Below are positions 14,304-37,791 of a DNA stretch of 40,883 nt, one piece after another. A model generated the notes under the pieces. That model ran no database searches. It had not been told where the DNA came from and saw only the letters and a program-made list of their open reading frames with translations. A program made the translations under genes and the position numbers. Position 1 is the first letter of the stretch. Each line of letters begins with the position of its first letter. Source of the DNA: a virus; the UHGV virus genome UHGV-0848487; one strand, 5' to 3'.

Positions 14304-14507
14304 TTACTTCCCCTGTTTACCAATGCGTTTAGGTGAGCAGATAGCGCGTATCTCTGAATCGTTAGGCTTGTCGCCCTGAAACAGAAAGTGCGCGTTCTCT
14401 GCGGCGCGTGCCGCGGACTGGCACGCCTCCATCGAATAAAACGTTTCTGATGCCGCTAGTTGCATCTGGCCCGCCGACAGTACCCAGATAAATAAGATGC
14501 TGGTCAT
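14304..14507 (-). CDS. small secreted/periplasmic protein (signal peptide), hypothetical
   Basis: Preferred ATG 14507 (MTSILFIWVLSAGQMQLAAS...) overlapping upstream stop; hydrophobic N-terminus then about 45 aa with two Cys. Confidence 0.4.
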   Translation of the reverse strand: MTSILFIWVLSAGQMQLAASETFYSMEACQSAARAAENAHFLFQGDKPNDSEIRAICSPKRIGKQGK

Positions 14508-15052
14508 CAGAAGTATTCCCCACACGTTTTACATACTTTCGTACCGAACGGCGCGGAGCCATCTGTTATTACATAATAGAAACTGTGTTTGCACTCCCGT
14601 GTACAGGCTGTTGGCTCATACTCAAGTCCGCCCCACTCACGCTTGCCGCATTCGCAGCAAAACCGGCTACCGGGCACGTTGTCCTTGTGGCCTTCGGCAA
14701 TAAACAATCCTGGAGCGATAATCCAATTGTGGTCACATTCCTGCGTATCTTCTTTTCGGCAACCAGATTGCTCCGAACCGTACGCACCTTTGCGGATAAG
14801 TTTGTATGCCTCCACGTCACCAGTAGCCTCAACCAATGCCAGATGCAACTCCTTAACTTGCCCTGTCAGGTGCGATATGTGCTCAGATTTCTTAATGTTG
14901 TCTTCCCGCAACTCCTTAATCTGCGCCGACGCATCACGTAACTGATTCTTAAGTGACTGCACCTCATGCGCCAGGTCTTCGCTCCGGCTGTTATTTACCT
15001 GCTGCCGTAGCTGGTCGATCAGGTACTCGAATATTTCGTTTTTGTTACTCAT
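14507..15052 (-). CDS. coiled-coil plus Cys-rich zinc-ribbon-like protein, hypothetical
   Basis: Preferred start MSNKNEIFEYL; N-terminal heptad region; C-terminal CDHNW...CCECGK...CTRECK...CKTCGEYF. Confidence 0.45.
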   Translation of the reverse strand: MSNKNEIFEYLIDQLRQQVNNSRSEDLAHEVQSLKNQLRDASAQIKELREDNIKKSEHISHLTGQVKELHLALVEATGDVEAYKLIRKGAYGSEQSGCRKEDTQECDHNWIIAPGLFIAEGHKDNVPGSRFCCECGKREWGGLEYEPTACTRECKHSFYYVITDGSAPFGTKVCKTCGEYF

Positions 15053-15212
15053 CAGCTTCACCCCTTTTCTCATCCACCCCGACTAGCAGCGATTTAGTGT
15101 CGCCGCCACACACCGAAGTGCTACTAATTATTTCGTAAGCGTCTACCAGTTCGCCTAAAGTCCAGCTACCGTACCAGCCCACCTCTGTCTCTCCTCTCGC
15201 TTGTGTAAATGA

Positions 15213-15241
15213 ATAGTAGCCTATTCTATCTTAGTGTGCAA
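15213..15241 (-). promoter_or_regulatory. sigma70-like promoter TTGCAC-N17-TACTAT (minus strand) overlapping GAATAG palindrome
   Basis: Minus strand TTGCACactaagatagaataggcTACTATtcattta; near-identical to promoters at 16507..16535 and 37733..37761. Confidence 0.5.
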
Positions 15242-15422: not shown

Positions 15423-15502
15423 TGTTGCATCTCCTGCAATAGTCGCTTCGATTGTTGCGTTTGATGAAAGTGTCGCCTTTTGACGACACTAAGTTAAAGT
15501 TG

Positions 15503-15524
15503 TACGCTGCTGTGTAGCAGCGTA
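15503..15524 (-). terminator. hairpin ACGCTGCT-gtgt-AGCAGCGT downstream of the 15557 gene
   Basis: Perfect 8-bp stem; modest U content after it on minus strand. Confidence 0.35.
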
Positions 15525-15556: not shown

Positions 15557-15757
15557 TCACACTTCTGGCGGCTCGGGTAACGGCATCCAGTGCGTCACGT
15601 ACTTATCGTAGTGATTCCAGAAAGGCTTTCTCCCGTCATCAGGAACTATGTAATAATCGTGCTGAACTGCGTTATTTAACGTTTCATACACCAGGAACTC
15701 TTTATCCGTATACCCATTACCCGGCAGCATCTCACTACACTTAATCCACTCACCCAT
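15557..15757 (-). CDS. DUF551-like protein (66 aa)
   Basis: C-terminal THWMPLPEPP motif; paralog on the plus strand at 20925..21182 ends ITHWMYLPELPEG. Confidence 0.5.
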   Translation of the reverse strand: MGEWIKCSEMLPGNGYTDKEFLVYETLNNAVQHDYYIVPDDGRKPFWNHYDKYVTHWMPLPEPPEV

Positions 15758-15905
15758 ACCTCACACCTCTTTCAATCAAGGATTGCACACCAGCTTTCCA
15801 CGCCCGCCACGCGAGACGCGTCTTAACGTTCAGGTACTCTTTCTTTGAACCCTTGTTAACCGGCAGACCCTCGACCACAGCCCACCGTTCAAATGCTTCT
15901 CTCAT
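15750..15905 (-). CDS. hypothetical protein (51 aa)
   Basis: ATG 15903-15905 overlapping upstream stop (ATGA); under track cutoff. Confidence 0.3.
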   Translation of the reverse strand: MREAFERWAVVEGLPVNKGSKKEYLNVKTRLAWRAWKAGVQSLIERGVRYG

Positions 15906-16090
15906 ACCAGAACCTCACATTCATCCCGATACGCGAACAATAACGACCCTTTGTACTCAATCATAAAACCATAATGGTTGATGCTGAACGCCGGAAAAAC
16001 ATCACCTACCGAGATACCGAAATCTATAAGCCTGCGGTCAGTTATACGGACAAGCCTGCGGTCAGTTATACGGATTCGCATTAACGGCAA
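15902..16090 (-). CDS. hypothetical protein (62 aa) containing a 24-bp in-frame tandem duplication
   Basis: ORF track; peptide RITDRRLV duplicated. Confidence 0.4.
   Translation of the reverse strand: MPLMRIRITDRRLVRITDRRLIDFGISVGDVFPAFSINHYGFMIEYKGSLLFAYRDECEVLV
16028..16075. repeat. 24-bp tandem direct duplication (2 copies, 23/24 identical)
   Basis: aagcctgcggtcagttatacgga repeated head-to-tail. Confidence 0.9.
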
Positions 16091-16284
16091 CCTCCCTCAG
16101 AGTCGTCGGCACAAGCATCACGATTCGATGCCGTTTTGATTGCCTGTAAGCTATTTAGCATTTGCTGGCTATCCATCGTAATAATTGTAATCCCGTCCGA
16201 TAAATGCACCTCGTAGCGTTCAGCTACGAAATATATTTCCTCGAAATCATGATGTTTCAGTTCTTCAAATAATTCTTCCATCAC
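16081..16284 (-). CDS. acidic hypothetical protein (67 aa)
   Basis: ORF track; early leftward operon. Confidence 0.4.
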   Translation of the reverse strand: MMEELFEELKHHDFEEIYFVAERYEVHLSDGITIITMDSQQMLNSLQAIKTASNRDACADDSEGGCR

Positions 16285-16472
16285 TTCGCCCCTTTGAATT
16301 TAAAATTGTTGCCAATGAGTTTTAAGTTCTCCTCTTCTACGTATATTTGTGAATTTACCCCTCTCACCTTTTGCACGGTCACTACGTACTCACCGGGAAA
16401 TAAATTAGATTTTAATTCAATTATGCCGTGTTCACCGTCGGCGCATTTAACCAACTGACCATTCTTAAACAT
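16281..16472 (-). CDS. hypothetical protein, first gene of leftward early operon
   Basis: Preferred ATG 16472 (MFKNGQLVKC) after AGGAG about 10 nt upstream. Confidence 0.4.
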   Translation of the reverse strand: MFKNGQLVKCADGEHGIIELKSNLFPGEYVVTVQKVRGVNSQIYVEEENLKLIGNNFKFKGAK

Positions 16473-16506
16473 AACCCTCACTCCTCTGTCTCGTTCCGAT
16501 AAGTGA

Positions 16507-16535
16507 ATAGTATCCTATTATGTTGGGGCGTGCAA
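16507..16535 (-). promoter_or_regulatory. sigma70-like promoter TTGCAC-N17-TACTAT (minus strand) overlapping GAATAG palindrome
   Basis: Minus strand TTGCACgccccaacataataggaTACTATtcactta, about 25 nt upstream of the 16472 gene. Confidence 0.5.
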
Positions 16536-16594
16536 GAGATTAGTTACGTTGCCGTTGTGATTCTTTCGTTTCTTAAAGGAGTACGCAACGCAGT

Positions 16595-16614
16595 GGGTGG
16601 GCGTTAGCCCACCC
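16595..16614. promoter_or_regulatory. GC-rich 8-bp hairpin GGGTGGGC-gtta-GCCCACCC in early intergenic region
   Basis: Perfect stem, no U-tract on either strand. Confidence 0.3.
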
Positions 16615-16779
16615 CAGCGGAGTGAAGTACTCTCTACCTCACTCACGGCAACTATAGAAACTTTTAATTATCAGTGACTTATGAAGGAGGGTAAAATTTA
16701 AATAGACGGGGGCTTTCTTGCCACTTGCTGTTACTGGGATGAAACTTAGATACTAACGTTACCAAGAGTACTGTTTAGC

Positions 16780-16802
16780 GCCCCGCTTTAGGGCGGGGCT
16801 TT
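16780..16802 (+). terminator. hairpin GCCCCGC-loop-GCGGGGC followed by TTTA
   Basis: Near-identical to the element at 5353..5372 but in opposite orientation. Confidence 0.35.
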
Positions 16803-16956
16803 AAGTACCCGAGACTTAAGAATGATGTTTCTAAGTAATTCTGAATTAAGGTCCTTCGATACATTGATTTTACAGCTACATTTTATTTTGTCAATAGGTT
16901 GTGTTTGGCTATTGTAGGTGTTATAGTTGTTTCACTTGATAAAGAGGGCACGTAAA

Positions 16957-17136
16957 ATGACACAGAAAGAAGTAGCAGACTTAATCGGAGTTTCTCCTAT
17001 GACGCTTAATCGCTGGCTGCGGTCGGGTAAGTTCCCTGAGTGTTGCCGGGTTATTAACGGCTACCGTCAGCCGGGTACGTTTGACCGCGCTACTGTGGAG
17101 GCGTGGATTAAGGAGAACGTAAAAGATGCTAACTAA
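16957..17136 (+). CDS. AlpA-like HTH transcriptional regulator
   Basis: Preferred ATG 16957 after AGAGGG; sequence EVADLIGVSPMTLNRWLRSGKFPE ... TVEAWIKEN matches AlpA/excisionase-like family pattern. Confidence 0.65.
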   Translation: MTQKEVADLIGVSPMTLNRWLRSGKFPECCRVINGYRQPGTFDRATVEAWIKENVKDAN

Positions 17137-17401
17137 ATTCCAGAAACATATATTAATGTGTGCACGCAGACTGACCGAAGCGAACGGCGCTTTTACGGTA
17201 GACGGGCTTCGGAGATACCGGTTGGATAATTACGGTGTAAACCCGATTAAACATGCTTTAGATGTGCTCGAGCGACATGGTGAGATTCTTAATAAAGGAA
17301 AGTTTTATCGGGCAACAAGAGCAACGCCGATTACAGAGAAAGCGAGAAGTATTGGAAAAGTGTTGGTCCCCGAGGGTAATATCTCCCGCGACCTGGAATA
17401 A
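17126..17401 (+). CDS. hypothetical protein (91 aa)
   Basis: ORF track; start overlaps AlpA-like stop. Confidence 0.45.
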   Translation: MLTKFQKHILMCARRLTEANGAFTVDGLRRYRLDNYGVNPIKHALDVLERHGEILNKGKFYRATRATPITEKARSIGKVLVPEGNISRDLE

Positions 17402-17459
17402 AAGAAAGCCCCGACGCGGTGAACGCCGAGGCTAAATTACTTGCTGAAGGAAATACAAC

Positions 17460-19745
17460 ATGTCCGATGTAATTTTATCCTACTCGTGGTCCCGTCGCAA
17501 CGCGCGGGCGGAGAAAAAGGATATAAACGTCAGAACCACACATACGGCAACACTGGATGACCTGAAAGAGTTAATTCAGCCGCTTGATGCTGTTCGTGAC
17601 GGGATTAACCCTAAGACCGCGCCAGGTTATATCACTGCCGCGTGCGATTCTATACACAGCACCGTAAAAGACCCGGAAACAGGTGACTTTAAGCAGGCCC
17701 GTAAAGGCTTCTTTTATCGCTGTGACGCGTCTGTAAGCAAATCGTCGCTGGCGTATCTGGACTTCGACAGCGCAACGCCGGAAGAGTACCAGGAAGCGGT
17801 GCGCCTGGTTAAACGCAGCCGCCTGGCTATGTGCCTCTACACCACGGCATCCCATACCGATGGGTCACCGCGCTTTCGCGTCGTCATGCCGCTGGGCCGC
17901 CCGGTAGAAGGCGGTGACATCATCCGTGTTCGTCATGGATTGCTGGAGCACTTCTTCAAAGGTATGGGTGCGGACCGCAGCGGGTTCACTCTGTCTCAGC
18001 CGATGTACCTGCCGCCGGTTGGCTCTACTGTTATCTGGTCGCGCCGCAACGACCTGATTGACCCGGACGAGTTACTGGAAGGCATCCCCGCCGTTGACGT
18101 TAGCAGCGCATCGGATTACCAGATACCGAAAGAACTGCGAACAGCGTTTACCGATGCGTTTGAAGCACTGGCGTTCGAGTACGGCGGTATTATGACCCCG
18201 CGCGGCCTTAAGATGCCCGCTACGCCGGAACACGCCGAGAACTACAGCGACCCGACACCGCGCCCGGATGACTTCCTGCTGTGCTTCCCGCGCGAGGGAT
18301 ATGAAGCGCCTAACGTAACCATGATTCACGACACCGACATTACGGCGACCGAGGGCATGTCACCGAAAGAGGTGTGGAAGTATGCGTGCGATGCAACCGG
18401 GCTGCCGTTCAGTGAAGTCGCAGAGGCCATCGGTTGGGGTGCACGTGAATCTGTTTCTTGCAGCCTGGACGACCTTGAAGACGACGAGGACTCAGAGGAG
18501 GACGAGTTACCGGAACCGGTAAAGGCTGATTTCGTCGTTGAAGGGTACATGCCGTCGGATTGCATATGGGATATCGTCGGGGAGTCCGGTACGTATAAAT
18601 CCTTCTATACGCTGGGGATGATGTACCTGAGCGCCACCGGATACCGGTTTGCGGGTGCTGACACCCAGCGTTGCCACCATTTCTATATCGACGGTGAAGG
18701 CGGCGCAGCTACCCGCACCCGTATCGATGCGCTCGCGGCTAAATATGGCGAGGAAGGTAAAGATTATGTACATGTTATAGACATGGGTGAAATACTCGGT
18801 ATGCGAGAGGATAAAAAACTTACAGCACTCATCCGTATGATGCGTGAAACAGCAGGAGAGGAACCGATCGGTATGATTGCGTTCGATACCCTCAACCAGA
18901 CGCTGGCCCTGACGATTGATAAGTTTGATGAGAACAGTTCATCAACTGCAATCGGCATGGGTAAAGTCATCGCTATCCTTAAAAAAGCGCGTGACGCGAC
19001 TAAAGCTGCGGTAGGCGTTGTACACCATACACCGAAGGGCGGAAAGAAAGCCCGAGGTAGTGGTGCGCTGTACGCTGGCGTCGATGTGGAGCTGACAATC
19101 GAACGCGCGACAGACCGTCAGATAAATGTATACCACTCTAAATTTAAGCATGGGCCGCAACAGAAGACGGTTGGTATGGTGCTTGAGTCGGTACAGTTCC
19201 GCGAAGCCCCGCCACCGAAAGAATACCGCGCGGTTGAGTTCCTCGGTAGCACAGAGGAATACGGCACAACCGTTAACCTCGACCTGCCTGAGCCGCACAA
19301 AGCGCTTGTGCTTATGCCGTGGGGCTTCGAACCGTTCAAGACCGACGAGGAGAAAGAGCGGGAAGAAGGACTGACTAAGGAAGGTAAAGAAAACGTACGT
19401 AGGACCATGGAGAACGCCGTCAACAGTTCGGAAGCCACGATACTGGCGGCGTTTGAACTGGCGGAAGGAACCTACAACGGCAACGAAGGTATCACGGTAG
19501 CCGCGGCAAATAAGCTCGCACAGTCTGACCCCAACGCGAAGGCGTTCAACTCCAAAGAAGTCATAGAACGCGGAAAGATTAAGAAAATGGTTGAGGCGGG
19601 GTATCTTGTACCTGGTACGGACGAAAACAATCAGATAATCCCGGGCCGTTACAGATTGAATACCCGAATAACGGACAACAAGATTCCGAAGACAATATAC
19701 GAACCGAATGAAATGCTGACAGTGACAGAGGAGGATTTGGAATAG
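17460..19745 (+). CDS. replication protein: primase-like N-terminal region fused to RecA-like/AAA ATPase (helicase-type) domain
   Basis: 761 aa; LAYLDFD acidic motif in N-terminal half; deviant Walker A GESGTYKS, Walker B-like IGMIAFDTLNQ, HHTPKGG motif in C-terminal half. Confidence 0.55.
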   Translation: MSDVILSYSWSRRNARAEKKDINVRTTHTATLDDLKELIQPLDAVRDGINPKTAPGYITAACDSIHSTVKDPETGDFKQARKGFFYRCDASVSKSSLAYLDFDSATPEEYQEAVRLVKRSRLAMCLYTTASHTDGSPRFRVVMPLGRPVEGGDIIRVRHGLLEHFFKGMGADRSGFTLSQPMYLPPVGSTVIWSRRNDLIDPDELLEGIPAVDVSSASDYQIPKELRTAFTDAFEALAFEYGGIMTPRGLKMPATPEHAENYSDPTPRPDDFLLCFPREGYEAPNVTMIHDTDITATEGMSPKEVWKYACDATGLPFSEVAEAIGWGARESVSCSLDDLEDDEDSEEDELPEPVKADFVVEGYMPSDCIWDIVGESGTYKSFYTLGMMYLSATGYRFAGADTQRCHHFYIDGEGGAATRTRIDALAAKYGEEGKDYVHVIDMGEILGMREDKKLTALIRMMRETAGEEPIGMIAFDTLNQTLALTIDKFDENSSSTAIGMGKVIAILKKARDATKAAVGVVHHTPKGGKKARGSGALYAGVDVELTIERATDRQINVYHSKFKHGPQQKTVGMVLESVQFREAPPPKEYRAVEFLGSTEEYGTTVNLDLPEPHKALVLMPWGFEPFKTDEEKEREEGLTKEGKENVRRTMENAVNSSEATILAAFELAEGTYNGNEGITVAAANKLAQSDPNAKAFNSKEVIERGKIKKMVEAGYLVPGTDENNQIIPGRYRLNTRITDNKIPKTIYEPNEMLTVTEEDLE

Positions 19746-19754
19746 GTAAAAATA

Positions 19755-19773
19755 AAGGGGCGTTAAGCCCCTT
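19755..19773 (-). terminator. hairpin AAGGGGC-gttaa-GCCCCTT, U-tract on minus strand
   Basis: Stop codon of the XRE-like gene lies in the loop; located 10 nt after the replication gene stop on the plus strand. Confidence 0.5.
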
Positions 19774-19978
19774 CACCCAACGCCAGCCACTTGGCATCTA
19801 CTTGCAGCACTTCCGCCAGTTTAAACAGCGTCGCTGGGCGGACGTCCTGAGTTACCCCAAGTGCCAGCTGGTTAATCGCGCCTTGGGAAACACCGGCCAG
19901 GACAGCCAGATGGCGCTGGGAGATACCGAGTTCTTTACGGCGTTGCTCTACACGGATACCTAGTTCAGATGGTTGCAT
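19763..19978 (-). CDS. XRE-family (Cro/CI-type) HTH transcriptional regulator
   Basis: 71 aa; LGISQRHLAVLAGVSQGAINQL helix-turn-helix; AAGGAG RBS; antisense to the replication module. Confidence 0.8.
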   Translation of the reverse strand: MQPSELGIRVEQRRKELGISQRHLAVLAGVSQGAINQLALGVTQDVRPATLFKLAEVLQVDAKWLALGEGA

Positions 19979-19998
19979 GTCAATTACTCCTTAGTCAG

Positions 19999-20027
19999 TT
20001 GATATGTGAATAGTACCATATTAATTA
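19999..20027 (+). promoter_or_regulatory. candidate promoter TTGATA-N17-TAATTA overlapping the divergent XRE promoter (-10 TACTAT on minus strand at 20010..20015)
   Basis: Contains GTGAATAGTA operator-like motif; face-to-face overlapping promoters. Confidence 0.4.
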
Positions 20028-20042
20028 TTTTAGAAAAGCCCA

Positions 20043-20071
20043 TTGACAAGTGAATAGTTCGCTATTATAGT
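20043..20071 (+). promoter_or_regulatory. strong sigma70-like promoter TTGACA-N17-TATAGT
   Basis: Consensus -35, 17-nt spacer containing GTGAATAGTtcgCTATTA palindrome, -10 TATAGT; 30 nt upstream of the 20103 gene. Confidence 0.6.
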
Positions 20072-20102
20072 TAGCCCATACCAAACGAGAGGAGAATAAA
20101 TA

Positions 20103-20612
20103 ATGTTAGAGAAATTCTTAGTATTACTGGAACGTTTCGTAGTTGCGCATGAACTGATTGCTGCGAACAGCGCGAAACGACCGATGCCGTCAACTGAGTG
20201 TGTAGGTGAAATGCTTGTAGATGTATCGGTTACCGGAGAGGTGCTTGGAGTCGACCCAGGCACTGGCGTCGGGAAAGAAATCCCGGTCGAAGGCGAGGGC
20301 CTCGTTGACACTAAACCTGCGGAAGAAGAGAAGCCGAAACGCAAGCCGCGTAAAGCTAAAGTAGAGGAGCCAACGCCAGAGCCGGAAGAAGAGAAAGAAG
20401 AAGTCGATTACCAGTCTCTGCGCGACCAGATTCAGGCTATCGACGATGCGATTAACGAAGGCCCAAGCGATGCCGCGTGCGACGATTCTGACGAACTGCT
20501 GGAAGAGTTTACCGGTAAGAAGATGAAGATTGCAGCGATTAAAGACGAAGACCTGGCTGAGTATCTGGAGCGCCTGACAGCAATCAAGAACAAGTATTTC
20601 GAAGAAGAATAA
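20103..20612 (+). CDS. highly acidic hypothetical protein
   Basis: 169 aa, Glu/Asp-rich with short basic patch KPKRKPRKAK; GAGGAG RBS; first gene after strong promoter. Confidence 0.55.
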   Translation: MLEKFLVLLERFVVAHELIAANSAKRPMPSTECVGEMLVDVSVTGEVLGVDPGTGVGKEIPVEGEGLVDTKPAEEEKPKRKPRKAKVEEPTPEPEEEKEEVDYQSLRDQIQAIDDAINEGPSDAACDDSDELLEEFTGKKMKIAAIKDEDLAEYLERLTAIKNKYFEEE

Positions 20613-20619
20613 CTATCCC

Positions 20620-20638
20620 GCGGCCTTCGGGCCGCTTT
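20620..20638 (+). terminator. hairpin GCGGCC-ttcg-GGCCGC followed by TTT
   Basis: Directly after acidic protein gene. Confidence 0.45.
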
Positions 20639-20655
20639 AACTGAGGGTCGGGATT

Positions 20656-20928
20656 ATGATTTACCAACTATACCGCGCCGTTGACCGGCGGGATACCACA
20701 GAGGCGCTATGGTTATTGCGTGCGCCGTCCGGTGCGCACCAGATGGAAGAGATGGCGTACTTAGGCAAAGTACCGCTGTCTAAAGATATAGGCCGTCACG
20801 TGTCGCAGATTAAGCGCACGACATTCGCCAAGCCTGACTTTTATGTCTTTGAGTCGATGTACAGCTGGGCTATGCACTGCGACCATAAGACACGACATTT
20901 AATTGACCAGTGGGAGAGCAGGGTATGA
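20656..20928 (+). CDS. hypothetical protein (90 aa)
   Basis: ORF track; RBS GAGGG. Confidence 0.45.
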   Translation: MIYQLYRAVDRRDTTEALWLLRAPSGAHQMEEMAYLGKVPLSKDIGRHVSQIKRTTFAKPDFYVFESMYSWAMHCDHKTRHLIDQWESRV

Positions 20929-21182
20929 ATTGGGTTAGTGTAAACGAAGCATTGCCGGAGTCAAAAGATGATTCTGTTTTAGTTTGCTCAGTAGATGGTG
21001 GTAAATATGACGATAACGGGTTCCCGGAAGGTGGGATCGATTTTGTACATATACAGGACTATTTCGACGACATTACGGCTGGGCTGGATGAGAACGGAAA
21101 TCAGCTATATACGAAACGGTATATCGAGATGGGCATAACTCACTGGATGTATTTACCGGAACTGCCGGAGGGCACTAAATGA
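20925..21182 (+). CDS. DUF551-like protein
   Basis: Preferred ATG 20925 (MNWVSV) overlapping upstream stop; C-terminal ITHWMYLPELPEG. Confidence 0.5.
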   Translation: MNWVSVNEALPESKDDSVLVCSVDGGKYDDNGFPEGGIDFVHIQDYFDDITAGLDENGNQLYTKRYIEMGITHWMYLPELPEGTK

Positions 21183-22432
21183 TGATCCTAAAAGAGCGCG
21201 GCGGCAATAACGATGTACACGCCTTACTATCACCGTCAGGCGCTAAAAAGTGGCTAACCTGCCCGGCTTCTCTGGCCTGTGAAAAAGATATTCCTAACAC
21301 GTCCGGTAAAGCCGCGGTATTAGGCACAGCTATGCACACCATAGCCGAGATGCATCTTAACCAGTACATCAAAGGTGCTGCGCTGCCGTTAGAGCGTGAA
21401 GTCGGCGCTTACGTGCTGGATGAAGGTAAAGGCCAGATTAAGGCGCTAATCAGCCCAATGAAAGGCGCGGTACTGGTTACGGCGGACATGATTGAGCAGG
21501 TGCGCAAGTACACCGACTACTGCAAAGCGATTATCGACGTAGCGACTTACGACAAGCTGGAAATGCGAGTCAATCTTACTGAGGTATTGCATCCTGGGTA
21601 TGAAGGTGTCGAGACGTTCGGAACGGCTGACCTCGTTGCTGTCCAGGAACTGGCGAACACCGACGAGCACATGCTCATTATTGGCGACCTTAAAACTGGA
21701 CGGCATCGTGTTGAAGCGAAAGAAAACAAGCAGCTTATGCTTTACGCTCTCGGTGTTTATCGCCGACTCAAGAGACGTTATAACATCACAGTAGTGCGCC
21801 TGGTCATCTTCCAGCCGTACGCGGGGGGTGCGTCAGAGTGGGACATCTCGGTCGAAGGTCTGGAACTGTTCGCTAAGTTCGCACAGAAACGGGCACTGTT
21901 AGCGCTTGATGCTTATTTCCGTGGAAAGAAGAACCTGAAAGCGTCGGACTTTAAACCGTCGGTCGATGGTTGCCAGTGGTGCCGGTTCTCTGAACAGTGT
22001 GCCGCGCGTACAAAGACGGTTAATTCTGTACTGGCGGAAGAACTTGAAGACGACTTTGTGCTGGAACTGACGACGGAGCAACTCGTAGTTGAGTATGAGA
22101 AGTTGCCGCTGTTACGCCAGCACATCGACAAGGTTGAGAAAGCGATGTCCGCCGCATTGCATTCCGGTAAGAAAGTTCCTGGGTACAAGCTGGTTGAAGG
22201 TAAGATGGGCAACCGTGCGTGGAAAGATGCCGATGCGATTGAAGTGTCACACGGCGACATTCTCAAAAAAGAGGTATTGATGACCCCTACGGAGGCAGCA
22301 AAAGTTCTTTCGGCGGATGAGATGGCAGCGCTTGAGCCGTTTATTACCCGTAAGCCGGGCGCACCATGTGTCGCAACGGCAGACGACAAACGTCCTGAGT
22401 GGAATCAGGTTAGTGAAGAAGATTTGGAATAA
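21179..22432 (+). CDS. PD-(D/E)XK exonuclease, Cas4/RecB-like with Cys cluster
   Basis: GTADLVAV ... IIGDLKTG nuclease motifs; C-terminal CQWCRFSEQC; 417 aa. Confidence 0.6.
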   Translation: MMILKERGGNNDVHALLSPSGAKKWLTCPASLACEKDIPNTSGKAAVLGTAMHTIAEMHLNQYIKGAALPLEREVGAYVLDEGKGQIKALISPMKGAVLVTADMIEQVRKYTDYCKAIIDVATYDKLEMRVNLTEVLHPGYEGVETFGTADLVAVQELANTDEHMLIIGDLKTGRHRVEAKENKQLMLYALGVYRRLKRRYNITVVRLVIFQPYAGGASEWDISVEGLELFAKFAQKRALLALDAYFRGKKNLKASDFKPSVDGCQWCRFSEQCAARTKTVNSVLAEELEDDFVLELTTEQLVVEYEKLPLLRQHIDKVEKAMSAALHSGKKVPGYKLVEGKMGNRAWKDADAIEVSHGDILKKEVLMTPTEAAKVLSADEMAALEPFITRKPGAPCVATADDKRPEWNQVSEEDLE

Positions 22433-22436
22433 AGTG

Positions 22437-22465
22437 TTGACACCTGAATAGTTAGCTATTATAGT
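22437..22465 (+). promoter_or_regulatory. sigma70-like promoter TTGACA-N17-TATAGT
   Basis: Near-duplicate of promoter at 20043..20071 including TGAATAGTtagCTATTA palindrome. Confidence 0.6.
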
Positions 22466-25598: not shown

Positions 25599-25875
25599 TG
25601 AGGGGCGCGTGCAGAAATACGCAAAAGAGCGATTCGAGGCCCTGGGAGGCCTCGTACGCAAATTGTCGTACGAAAATAGAGCGGGCGCCCCCGACCTGCT
25701 GGTAATTCTCCCTGGTGGCATCATCTGGTTCGTCGAGGTTAAGAAAGACGAAAACACGAAGCCGGACCCGCACCAGTTACGAGAGCACGAGCGGATGCGT
25801 AAACGTGGTGCAAATGTTTTTGTCGTTGGTTCGTTTAAACAGGTTGACGACCTAATAGCGGGCTATTATAGTTAA
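25588..25875 (+). CDS. VRR-NUC domain nuclease
   Basis: GAPDLLVILPGGIIWFVEVKKDENTKPDPHQ matches VRR-NUC PD-(D/E)XK core; RBS GGGAGGGG. Confidence 0.7.
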   Translation: MSTPEGRVQKYAKERFEALGGLVRKLSYENRAGAPDLLVILPGGIIWFVEVKKDENTKPDPHQLREHERMRKRGANVFVVGSFKQVDDLIAGYYS

Positions 25876-37732: not shown

Positions 37733-37761
37733 TTGCACACCCCAATATAATAGGGTACTAT
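37733..37761 (+). promoter_or_regulatory. sigma70-like promoter TTGCAC-N17-TACTAT driving plus-strand accessory island
   Basis: TTGCACaccccaatataatagggTACTATtcactta; near-identical to the minus-strand early promoters at 15213..15241 and 16507..16535. Confidence 0.55.
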
Positions 37762-37791
37762 TCACTTACACCAACAATGAAGGGGTTTAAA

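Follow-up and report, generated by a model that had tools for sequence, protein, structure and literature searches.

The window, by which we mean the whole 40,883-bp stretch of DNA analysed here, is the genome of a Kagunavirus (Guernseyvirinae), a K1-type E. coli phage. Its DNA is 89-95% identical to that of K1ind2/3, K1H, K1G and other Kagunaviruses, while its first 25 kb are at most 88% covered by any deposited genome. It carries two small DUF551 genes, copy A and copy B (Table 1). As the preliminary description had reported, they lie on opposite strands in different transcription units, and the C-termini of both read THWMxLPExP; both units adjoin replication genes. A six-frame scan of the 40,883 bp for [HYFW]W[MILVA]x[LIPVM]Px[LPAIV] returned just these two sites, and with three HMMs run on all ORFs also giving exactly two matches, there is no third DUF551 copy in the window.

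Table 1. Features at and around the two DUF551 genes of the window
Feature	Coordinates	Strand	Remarks
Two stable hairpins	15470..15523	-	Directly after the stop of A; conserved right flank of the left-hand slot
DUF551 copy A	15557..15757	-	66 aa, pI 4.7, net charge -6; ends ...YVTHWMPLPEPPEV
51-aa gene	15750..15905	-	phrog_15836; directly upstream of A; conserved left flank of the left-hand slot
Promoter-like element	16500..16541	-	CTTGCAC-17-TACTAT; palindrome AATAGTATCCTATT (16506-16519) over the -10
Sigma70-like promoter match	16867..16894	-	TTGACA-16-TAAAAT, 11/12; consensus match only, in the divergent intergenic region
XRE/DicA-like HTH gene	19763..19978	-	Pfam HTH_3, E 9.7e-12; divergent from the 20043 promoter-like element
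Promoter-like element	20043..20071	+	TTGACA-17-TATAGT, 11/12; palindrome AATAGTTCGCTATT (20053-20066) in the spacer
90-aa gene	20656..20928	+	phrog_4965; conserved left flank of the right-hand slot
DUF551 copy B	20925..21182	+	85 aa, net charge about -12, GC 43.8%; ends ...GITHWMYLPELPEGTK
DUF2800 / PD-(D/E)XK nuclease gene	21179..22432	+	Pfam DUF2800, E 1.1e-67; conserved right flank of the right-hand slot

A Shine-Dalgarno sequence is present at both copies, and both overlap their neighbours. The start of A overlaps the stop of the 51-aa gene by 8 nt; the ATG of B overlaps the stop of the 90-aa gene as ATGA, and the stop of B overlaps the nuclease ATG. Between close relatives, codon differences are more often synonymous than non-synonymous in A (10-13 against 4-8) and in B (16-18 against 3-5), so that both genes are under purifying selection. 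Together these features show that A and B are real coding genes. An alternative GTG start at 20910 would give B 90 aa; the ATG at 20925 is the start annotated in fTaEco01.

The protein encoded by A is 100% identical in K1G, K1H, K1ind2/3, fKuEco01 and fTaEco01, and that encoded by B in fTaEco01/03. In fTaEco01 (vB_EcoS_fTaEco01, MT711527) the identical proteins are TE1_053 (A) and TE1_041 (B). Both genes occupy the same positions and orientations there as in the window, and the GenBank entry labels both 'belongs to DUF551 superfamily', so they are already catalogued as DUF551 in a deposited relative. fTaEco01 is nevertheless a distinct phage, whose 188-aa gene is 54% and whose HTH gene 65% identical to those of the window.

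DUF551 (Pfam PF04448, InterPro IPR007539) is a widespread, uncharacterised phage family. Against a gathering cut-off of 22 bits and a model of 68 positions, A scored 46.6 bits (E 6.3e-12, profile positions 1-68) and B 35.3 bits (E 2.2e-8, positions 2-68). The top PHROG for each was phrog_924. The two are therefore true members of the family, not merely DUF551-like. NCBIfam gave only a sub-threshold match, and no family among the PADLOC-DB defence-system models matched A or B at E <= 1. Membership of the Ead/Ea22 family (IPR025153) was rejected; it needs an N-terminal segment and a central coiled coil, and A and B consist of the DUF551 domain only. Extensions of the coiled-coil type were confined to three distant loci (L053, L056 and L057).

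The pairwise comparison of A with B gave a different picture at different sensitivities. BLASTP aligned no more than the 12 residues of the C-terminal motif, nine of them identical (E 4e-5), as if two unrelated ORFs resembled each other there by chance. Profile-profile comparison with hhalign, using profiles built from each copy's own homologues, aligned 66 columns with a probability of 99% and E 2.3e-18, and the HMM of each copy scored 31-32 bits on the other. The likeness also extends to the N-terminus, where both carry W-[IV]-x-x-x-E-x-[LM]-P, a form of the family motif W-[IV]-x-x-x-[DE]-x-[LM]-P, as well as the C-terminal family motif T-H-W-M-x-L-P-x-x-P; in a joint alignment of 45 sequences W4, P12, H56, W57 and P61 are invariant. 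Together with the full-length Pfam matches above cut-off this refutes chance resemblance, to which we give practically no credence. A and B are homologous over the whole domain, and the likeness is not limited to the C-terminal motif.

The preliminary description called the two genes paralogs. They are indeed homologues of one family, but an origin by duplication does not fit their divergence. They share 29% amino-acid identity with unalignable cores, and the longest DNA run common to both is 9 nt. Unrelated phages contain proteins much more similar to each copy than the copies are to one another: identity with A is 58% in Klebsiella phage KP13-26 and 35-39% for P22 ORF67 and the Ea22 V2 domain (39% for P22 ORF67), and identity with B is 65% in Serratia/Erwinia myoviruses and 38% in Yersinia T4-like phages. 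Database searches with A do not return the match set of B, nor the reverse. Recent duplication within this genome was rejected on these grounds. An inversion of the intervening 5.4 kb through the inverted copies was also rejected, because their exact shared identity is only 9 nt. A and B are two divergent DUF551 members of separate origin, each probably acquired at its own recombination hot spot in the early region.

Copy A, with the core type 'LVYETLNNAVQHDYY...FWNHY', lies in the left-hand slot, which is hypervariable. The 34 alleles found there fall into 10 core clusters whose cores cannot be aligned with one another. In pairwise comparisons with the window, DNA identity is 90-100% in the upstream gene, 70-90% over the first 30 nt of the ORF and 25-55% in the core, returning to 90-100% over the last 30 nt and downstream. 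Identity at third codon positions in the termini is 0.7-1.0, and the flanks of the slot plus the outer 40 nt or so at each end of the gene are 70-100% identical despite the unalignable cores. The left slot thus has an intragenic mosaic pattern. The ends of A and its flanks would form a conserved backbone, with only a core of 35-45 residues exchanged among phages. The hairpins that bound the slot have an RNA fold of -38.6 kcal/mol (z -2.6) and are possibly an attenuator or an RNA-stability element.

Copy B, of core type 'VHIQDYFDDITAGLDENGNQLYTK', is a self-contained cassette in the right-hand slot, placed precisely at the junction of the 90-aa gene with the nuclease gene. This junction is empty in 24 of 46 related loci, with the nuclease start directly overlapping the stop of the 90-aa gene, and holds B in five. 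Elsewhere it is occupied by a 115-aa gene, by ORFs of 46-57 aa or by a 165-aa HNH-AP2 homing endonuclease. At 43.8%, the GC content of B is low and deviates from the 50.9% of its operon.

The copies are polymorphic in presence and absence. Among 38 sampled relatives, 26 have one left copy, nine have none, two have only the right copy and one has two left copies; none has left and right together. Since the pair is absent from all 38, it is not a conserved design. It does occur in three GenBank phages, fTaEco01, fTaEco03 and IME207, so there may be some benefit from the combination. Clustering at 50% identity gives 35,038 representatives for the DUF551 family, and many of these have 2-4 domains in tandem, so multiple copies are commonplace; in ten long proteins with DUF551 (228-401 aa), Pfam showed DUF551 only and no informative fusion partner. 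The pair itself is thus ordinary: the family is catalogued, multiple copies are common and the same genes are already labelled in a relative.

Both transcription units begin at promoter-like elements. The leftward element lies directly upstream of the run of small genes from 16481 to A and has syntenic copies in relatives. The rightward element heads the unit g169-g90-B-nuclease and agrees at 26 of 29 positions with another promoter-like site, at 22437. The palindrome AATAG-N4-CTATT is found at both, and a degenerate second site lies at 19999-20023. The XRE/DicA-like HTH protein, whose counterpart in fTaEco01 is annotated 'transcriptional repressor DicA', is a candidate binder of this palindrome. 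Judged from sequence, the common palindrome suggests that the two units are co-regulated rather than separated in time.

This bears on the proposal, made in the preliminary description, that the two genes partition a common function by dosage or timing. Some features of A and B favour paralogues placed in two operons to set a dose, or to be expressed at two times: they belong to one Pfam family, have the same terminal motifs, sit in separate units on opposite strands and recur as a pair in fTaEco01, fTaEco03 and IME207. However, the shared palindrome points to common rather than staggered control and therefore leaves the proposal unsupported. The unalignable cores at 29% identity, the closer relatives of each copy in other phage families and the sampled relatives, most of which have one copy or none, also argue against it. 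We think it improbable.

Joint action of A and B, as a hetero-oligomer or two-component pair, has some precedent in the family, where 2-4 tandem copies within one polypeptide are frequent, and two relatives (L015 and L039) have two adjacent copies in the left slot. However, A nearly always occurs without B, B occurs without any left-slot copy in two loci (L017 and L024), and 5.4 kb separates the two genes, which are on opposite strands. We consider joint action very improbable, more so than partitioning by dosage or timing.

A further alternative is that the genes are dispensable passengers without a role in infection, which persist for no other reason than that the slots are hot spots of recombination. 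The nine relatives with no DUF551 in this region, the many empty right-hand junctions and the selfish homing endonuclease among the other slot occupants are all in keeping with this. It does not explain why synonymous changes exceed non-synonymous ones within each type, why the motifs are strictly conserved across so large a family, or why ribosome-binding sites and translational coupling are intact. It seems unlikely, although less so than either form of shared function.

The predicted structures are confident (AF2 mean pLDDT 89.8 for A and 84 for B) and mostly beta-strand. The model of A matched only DUF551 proteins in BFVD, the top ones with query-normalised TM-scores of 0.77-0.85 and E-values down to 2.8e-7, so its predicted fold agrees with that of other members. 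In the PDB, Foldseek found no neighbour of either model at E <= 0.001 (best E 0.55), and sequence searches with both proteins and both profiles gave nothing credible (best E 0.21-0.59, spurious). Small SH3/Tudor-like beta-barrels are enriched among the weak top matches of both models, a resemblance at most (best E 0.55-2.2, probability <=0.47, query-normalised TM-score <=0.42). A weak match to phage Bas11 Gp54 (9axb, Foldseek E 4) was dropped, since searches with the DUF551 profiles failed to recover that chain.

As to physical character, the median pI is 4.5 and 11-18% of residues are aromatic. A and B would each be an accessory module of small size, acidic and Trp-rich and mostly beta in structure. 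Their promoter-like sequences and gene neighbours suggest that they are made early, from host-RNA-polymerase promoters, and during takeover each protein probably has a host (or phage) macromolecule as its binding partner. Protein binding is a guess from size, charge and context, as the PDB has no significant structural neighbours. The motifs conserved at the N- and C-termini may form a scaffold and the variable core may carry specificity. The two copies would then differ in specificity instead of doubling the dose of a single activity.

Extending this, we tentatively propose that the left DUF551 gene of Kagunaviruses is a hypervariable specificity locus, its termini serving as both scaffold and recombination anchors and its cores tracking a variable host target. 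We regard this as a possibility only, well short of an even chance. The anchors would be the conserved terminal coding segments of about 40 nt, MGEWIKCSERMPE ... VTHWMPLPEPPEV, which would admit cores from the huge DUF551 pool, and the target might be a host factor that is polymorphic, or else a defence system. If so, a phage with both A and B would have two specificities and a broader host range. These phages also provide a clean natural experiment, as the sole difference between near-identical phages is the core of one small early gene, with about 10 core types, or the presence of the B cassette. DUF551, with its more than 35,000 sequence clusters, thereby becomes open to experiment by comparing host range or defence sensitivity across K1-type phages.

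The literature on DUF551, PF04448, IPR007539 and YfdS gives no biochemical function for any DUF551 protein, only indirect phenotypes. YfdS, from the E. coli cryptic prophage CPS-53, contains DUF551 and is the sole member with a reported phenotype. Its deletion causes H2O2 sensitivity, and when over-supplied with YfdQ and YfdR it contributes to the inhibition of replication initiation, but these phenotypes are indirect, without DnaA binding (PMC4776307), and what likens YfdS to A and B is the shared domain. P22 ORF67 has the same domain and belongs to the early-left operon, where ral and gene 17 flank it. A DUF551 domain has also been noted in Ea22 variant V2 of Stx phages (PMC10834534). Like A and B, ORF67 and Ea22 V2 are among early accessory or host-interaction genes (PMC10834534), although they come from temperate lambdoid phages, and in V2 the domain is C-terminal, behind a coiled-coil tetramerisation region, while A and B are bare single domains. 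A Yersinia phage homologue sits between motB-like and cef, and the homologue in Serratia phage MyoSmar is found among small genes after the primase gene.

A and B, the DUF551 copies in the left- and right-hand slots of the window, both belong to a phage family that is known but uncharacterised. The preliminary description correctly reported both ORFs and their common C-terminal tail, T-H-W-M-x-L-P-E-x-P, and a six-frame motif scan of the whole 40,883-bp window confined this signature to the two genes. The HMM search it had proposed matched both to the entire 68-position Pfam DUF551 model (PF04448), A with 46.6 bits (E 6.3e-12) and B with 35.3 bits (E 2.2e-8), both over the curated 22-bit threshold; phrog_924 is the best PHROG for each. 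BLASTP of A against B aligned just the 12-residue tail. Chance similarity of this tail alone does not hold, as profile-profile comparison of the two families gave a match over 66 columns (probability 99%, E 2.3e-18), and alignments of each one's homologues have a common N-terminal motif, W-I-x-x-S/x-E-x-L/M-P-E.

A and B are genuine coding genes under selection. Each has a ribosome-binding site and overlaps stop or start codons of adjacent genes, and codon differences within type are 10-13 synonymous against 4-8 non-synonymous for A, and 16-18 against 3-5 for B. Phage fTaEco01 (MT711527) has counterparts of A and B at matching positions, with 100% protein identity, both labelled 'belongs to DUF551 superfamily' in its record, and both genes are also present in fTaEco03 and IME207. 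Against K1ind2/3, K1H, K1G and other Kagunaviruses (Guernseyvirinae), the region shows 89-95% DNA identity. Any single deposited genome covers at most 88% of the first 25 kb of the window, which makes it a new mosaic built from known modules.

That A and B are duplicates is contradicted by their 29% identity in global alignment, a longest common DNA run of 9 nt and closer relatives elsewhere. Relatives of A lie in 270 phage records, with identities of 55-58% in Klebsiella phages, 39% for P22 ORF67 and 35% for Ea22-type proteins of Stx phages. Those of B lie in just 26, with 62-65% in Serratia and Erwinia myoviruses and 38% in Yersinia T4-like phages. Searches with A and B in a collection of 5.8 billion proteins shared no matches. 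Each gene is thus far nearer to genes of unrelated phages than to its partner. The best-supported reading is of two divergent accessory cassettes, independently acquired at two recombination hot spots.

In the left-hand slot, 34 alleles gave 30 distinct proteins in 10 clusters, one of them a truncated gene. An almost invariant N-terminus, MGEWIKCSERMPE, and C-terminus, VTHWMPLPEPPEV, enclose variable cores of 35-45 residues, of about 10 mutually unalignable kinds. Pairwise DNA alignment with the window as reference gave 90-100% identity in the upstream gene, 70-90% in the initial 30 nt of the DUF551 ORF, 25-55% (noise level) in the core, and 90-100% in the final 30 nt and downstream. Third-codon-position identity in the termini is 0.7-1.0 which, with the conserved ends and flanks, places the exchange boundaries inside the gene. 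A is best interpreted as one interchangeable core within a conserved frame. This pattern of conserved ends and swapped core is the most interesting residue of the analysis, and it opens DUF551 to testing in natural near-isogenic phages.

Both slots were surveyed in 74 loci retrieved around nuclease-gene homologues, using HMMs of the A and B families. The right-hand slot is empty in 24 of 46 loci, in which the 90-aa gene's stop codon runs directly into the start of the nuclease gene with an overlap, and is occupied by B in five, the window included. Other contents in relatives are a 115-aa gene, ORFs of 46-57 aa and a 165-aa HNH-AP2 homing endonuclease. The GC content of B is 43.8% against 50.9% for its operon. 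The 20928/21179 junction between the 90-aa and nuclease genes is an insertion hot spot, and the evidence best supports B as an occasional insert ahead of the nuclease gene. Among the 38 fully covered relatives, to which we limited the count of copies, 26 have one left copy, nine have none, two have B alone and one has two left copies; left and right copies together occur in none of the 38. The pairing of A with B is thus rare and no conserved design.

DUF551 has 35,038 representatives of 50%-identity clusters (E <= 1e-3). Many family proteins have two to four tandem domains, so several copies are normal; no other Pfam domains were found in long members. The AF2 models of A and B (mean pLDDT 89.8 and 84) are confident and largely beta-strand. 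The structural neighbours of the A model in BFVD are DUF551 proteins without exception, and those of both models in the PDB showed a weak SH3/Tudor flavour and none was significant; sequence and profile searches found no solved structure for either. Aromatic residues are abundant in the proteins, whose acidity shows in a median pI of 4.5 and in net charges of -6 (A) and -12 (B). In other phages the homologues are placed amid early accessory genes, flanked by ral and gene 17 in P22 and by a motB-like gene and cef in Yersinia phage phiR1-RT, and past the primase gene in Serratia phage MyoSmar. The literature searched holds no biochemical function for DUF551, which has been called a 'portable' domain in connection with Ea22 variant V2 (PMC10834534). 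For the prophage member YfdS the sole links are to H2O2 sensitivity and to replication initiation, which is inhibited when YfdS is over-supplied with YfdQ and YfdR (PMC4776307). It seems likely, at low confidence, that A and B would serve as small acidic binding modules with different specificities that act in early infection on factors of the host or of the phage. Three relatives further away, their nuclease 54-57% identical, encode proteins of 161-214 aa that end in a DUF551 domain and have in common an N-terminal coiled-coil-like segment, MTTTVTKESLAARIAELESG..., reminiscent of Ea22-type architecture.

A is the final gene of a leftward run of small genes. The DNA of the two hairpins past it is conserved in relatives, and they could form an attenuator or transcript-stabilising element; the second is followed by UUUCAU. 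The rightward unit runs from a 169-aa gene (phrog_3127) through the 90-aa gene (phrog_4965) and B to the nuclease. Beyond it, past a further promoter, lie an Enc34-type ssDNA-binding protein and DNA polymerase. An HTH_17 gene, a helicase-primase and a divergent XRE/DicA-like gene separate the two units.

Coordinates of the DUF551 genes and associated features in the window and in loci of related genomes (L numbers) fetched around nuclease homologues
Feature	Coordinates	Strand	Remark
A	15557..15757	minus	66 aa
B	20925..21182	plus	85 aa
Small genes before A, in order	16481..16281, 16284..16081, 16090..15902, 15905..15750	minus	
Two stable hairpins	15470-15523	minus	directly past A's stop codon; fold z-score -2.6
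Nuclease gene	21179..22432	plus	DUF2800/PD-(D/E)XK; 3' of B
Sigma70-like match	16894..16867	minus	11/12
Sigma70-like match	20043..20071	plus	11/12
Sigma70-like match	22437..22465	plus	11/12
AATAG-N4-CTATT	15212-15225, 16506-16519, 20053-20066, 22447-22460, 25854-25867, 37749-37762		
CTTGCAC-17-TACTAT	~16541-16500, ~15247-15206	minus	
CTTGCAC-17-TACTAT	~37737-37775	plus	
Left-slot DUF551 genes, examples from L002-L048	L012 4176-4379, L020 3536-3748, L040 4125-4319, L043 4812-5021		
Right-hand slot contents instead of B	L007 253-750, L008 9507-10004, L051 5313-5810		
Decayed remnant of 165-aa homing endonuclease	L036 8902-9105		right-hand slot
Proteins with C-terminal DUF551	L053 31-648, L056 650-1306, L057 451-936		

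The palindrome AATAG-N4-CTATT is present in six copies, against 0.02 expected by chance. Each copy is part of one of two conserved promoter-like layouts: three lie in the spacer of TTGACx-17-TATAGT sites (20043, 22437, 25844), and in the other three, of the type CTTGCAC-17-TACTAT, the palindrome overlaps the -10. Almost all Guernseyvirinae loci have these sites in synteny and the distant loci compared lack them; together they look like a phage-wide operator/promoter regulon. The unit of A starts at the 16506 site and that of B at the 20053 site; with such a site heading each unit, we infer that the two genes seem to share a single operator-marked regulon. The suggestion that they partition a single function by dosage or timing is not supported.

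A 25-nt direct repeat (19999-20023 and 20043-20067; 80% identical, 44-nt spacing) lies in the divergent stretch that separates the XRE gene from the rightward promoter. Its upstream copy is the palindrome in degenerate form and could allow cooperative or autoregulatory binding. In the leftward run, ORF 15902..16090(-) contains a perfect 24-nt tandem duplication (two copies, 16028-16074) that gives a repeated peptide, RITDRRL(V/I). The 188-aa protein at 14507-15073(-) has a coiled-coil-like N-terminal half and a Cys-rich C-terminal half with several CxxC pairs. Its identity across relatives ranges from 31% to 99%, so it is a further mosaic accessory gene.
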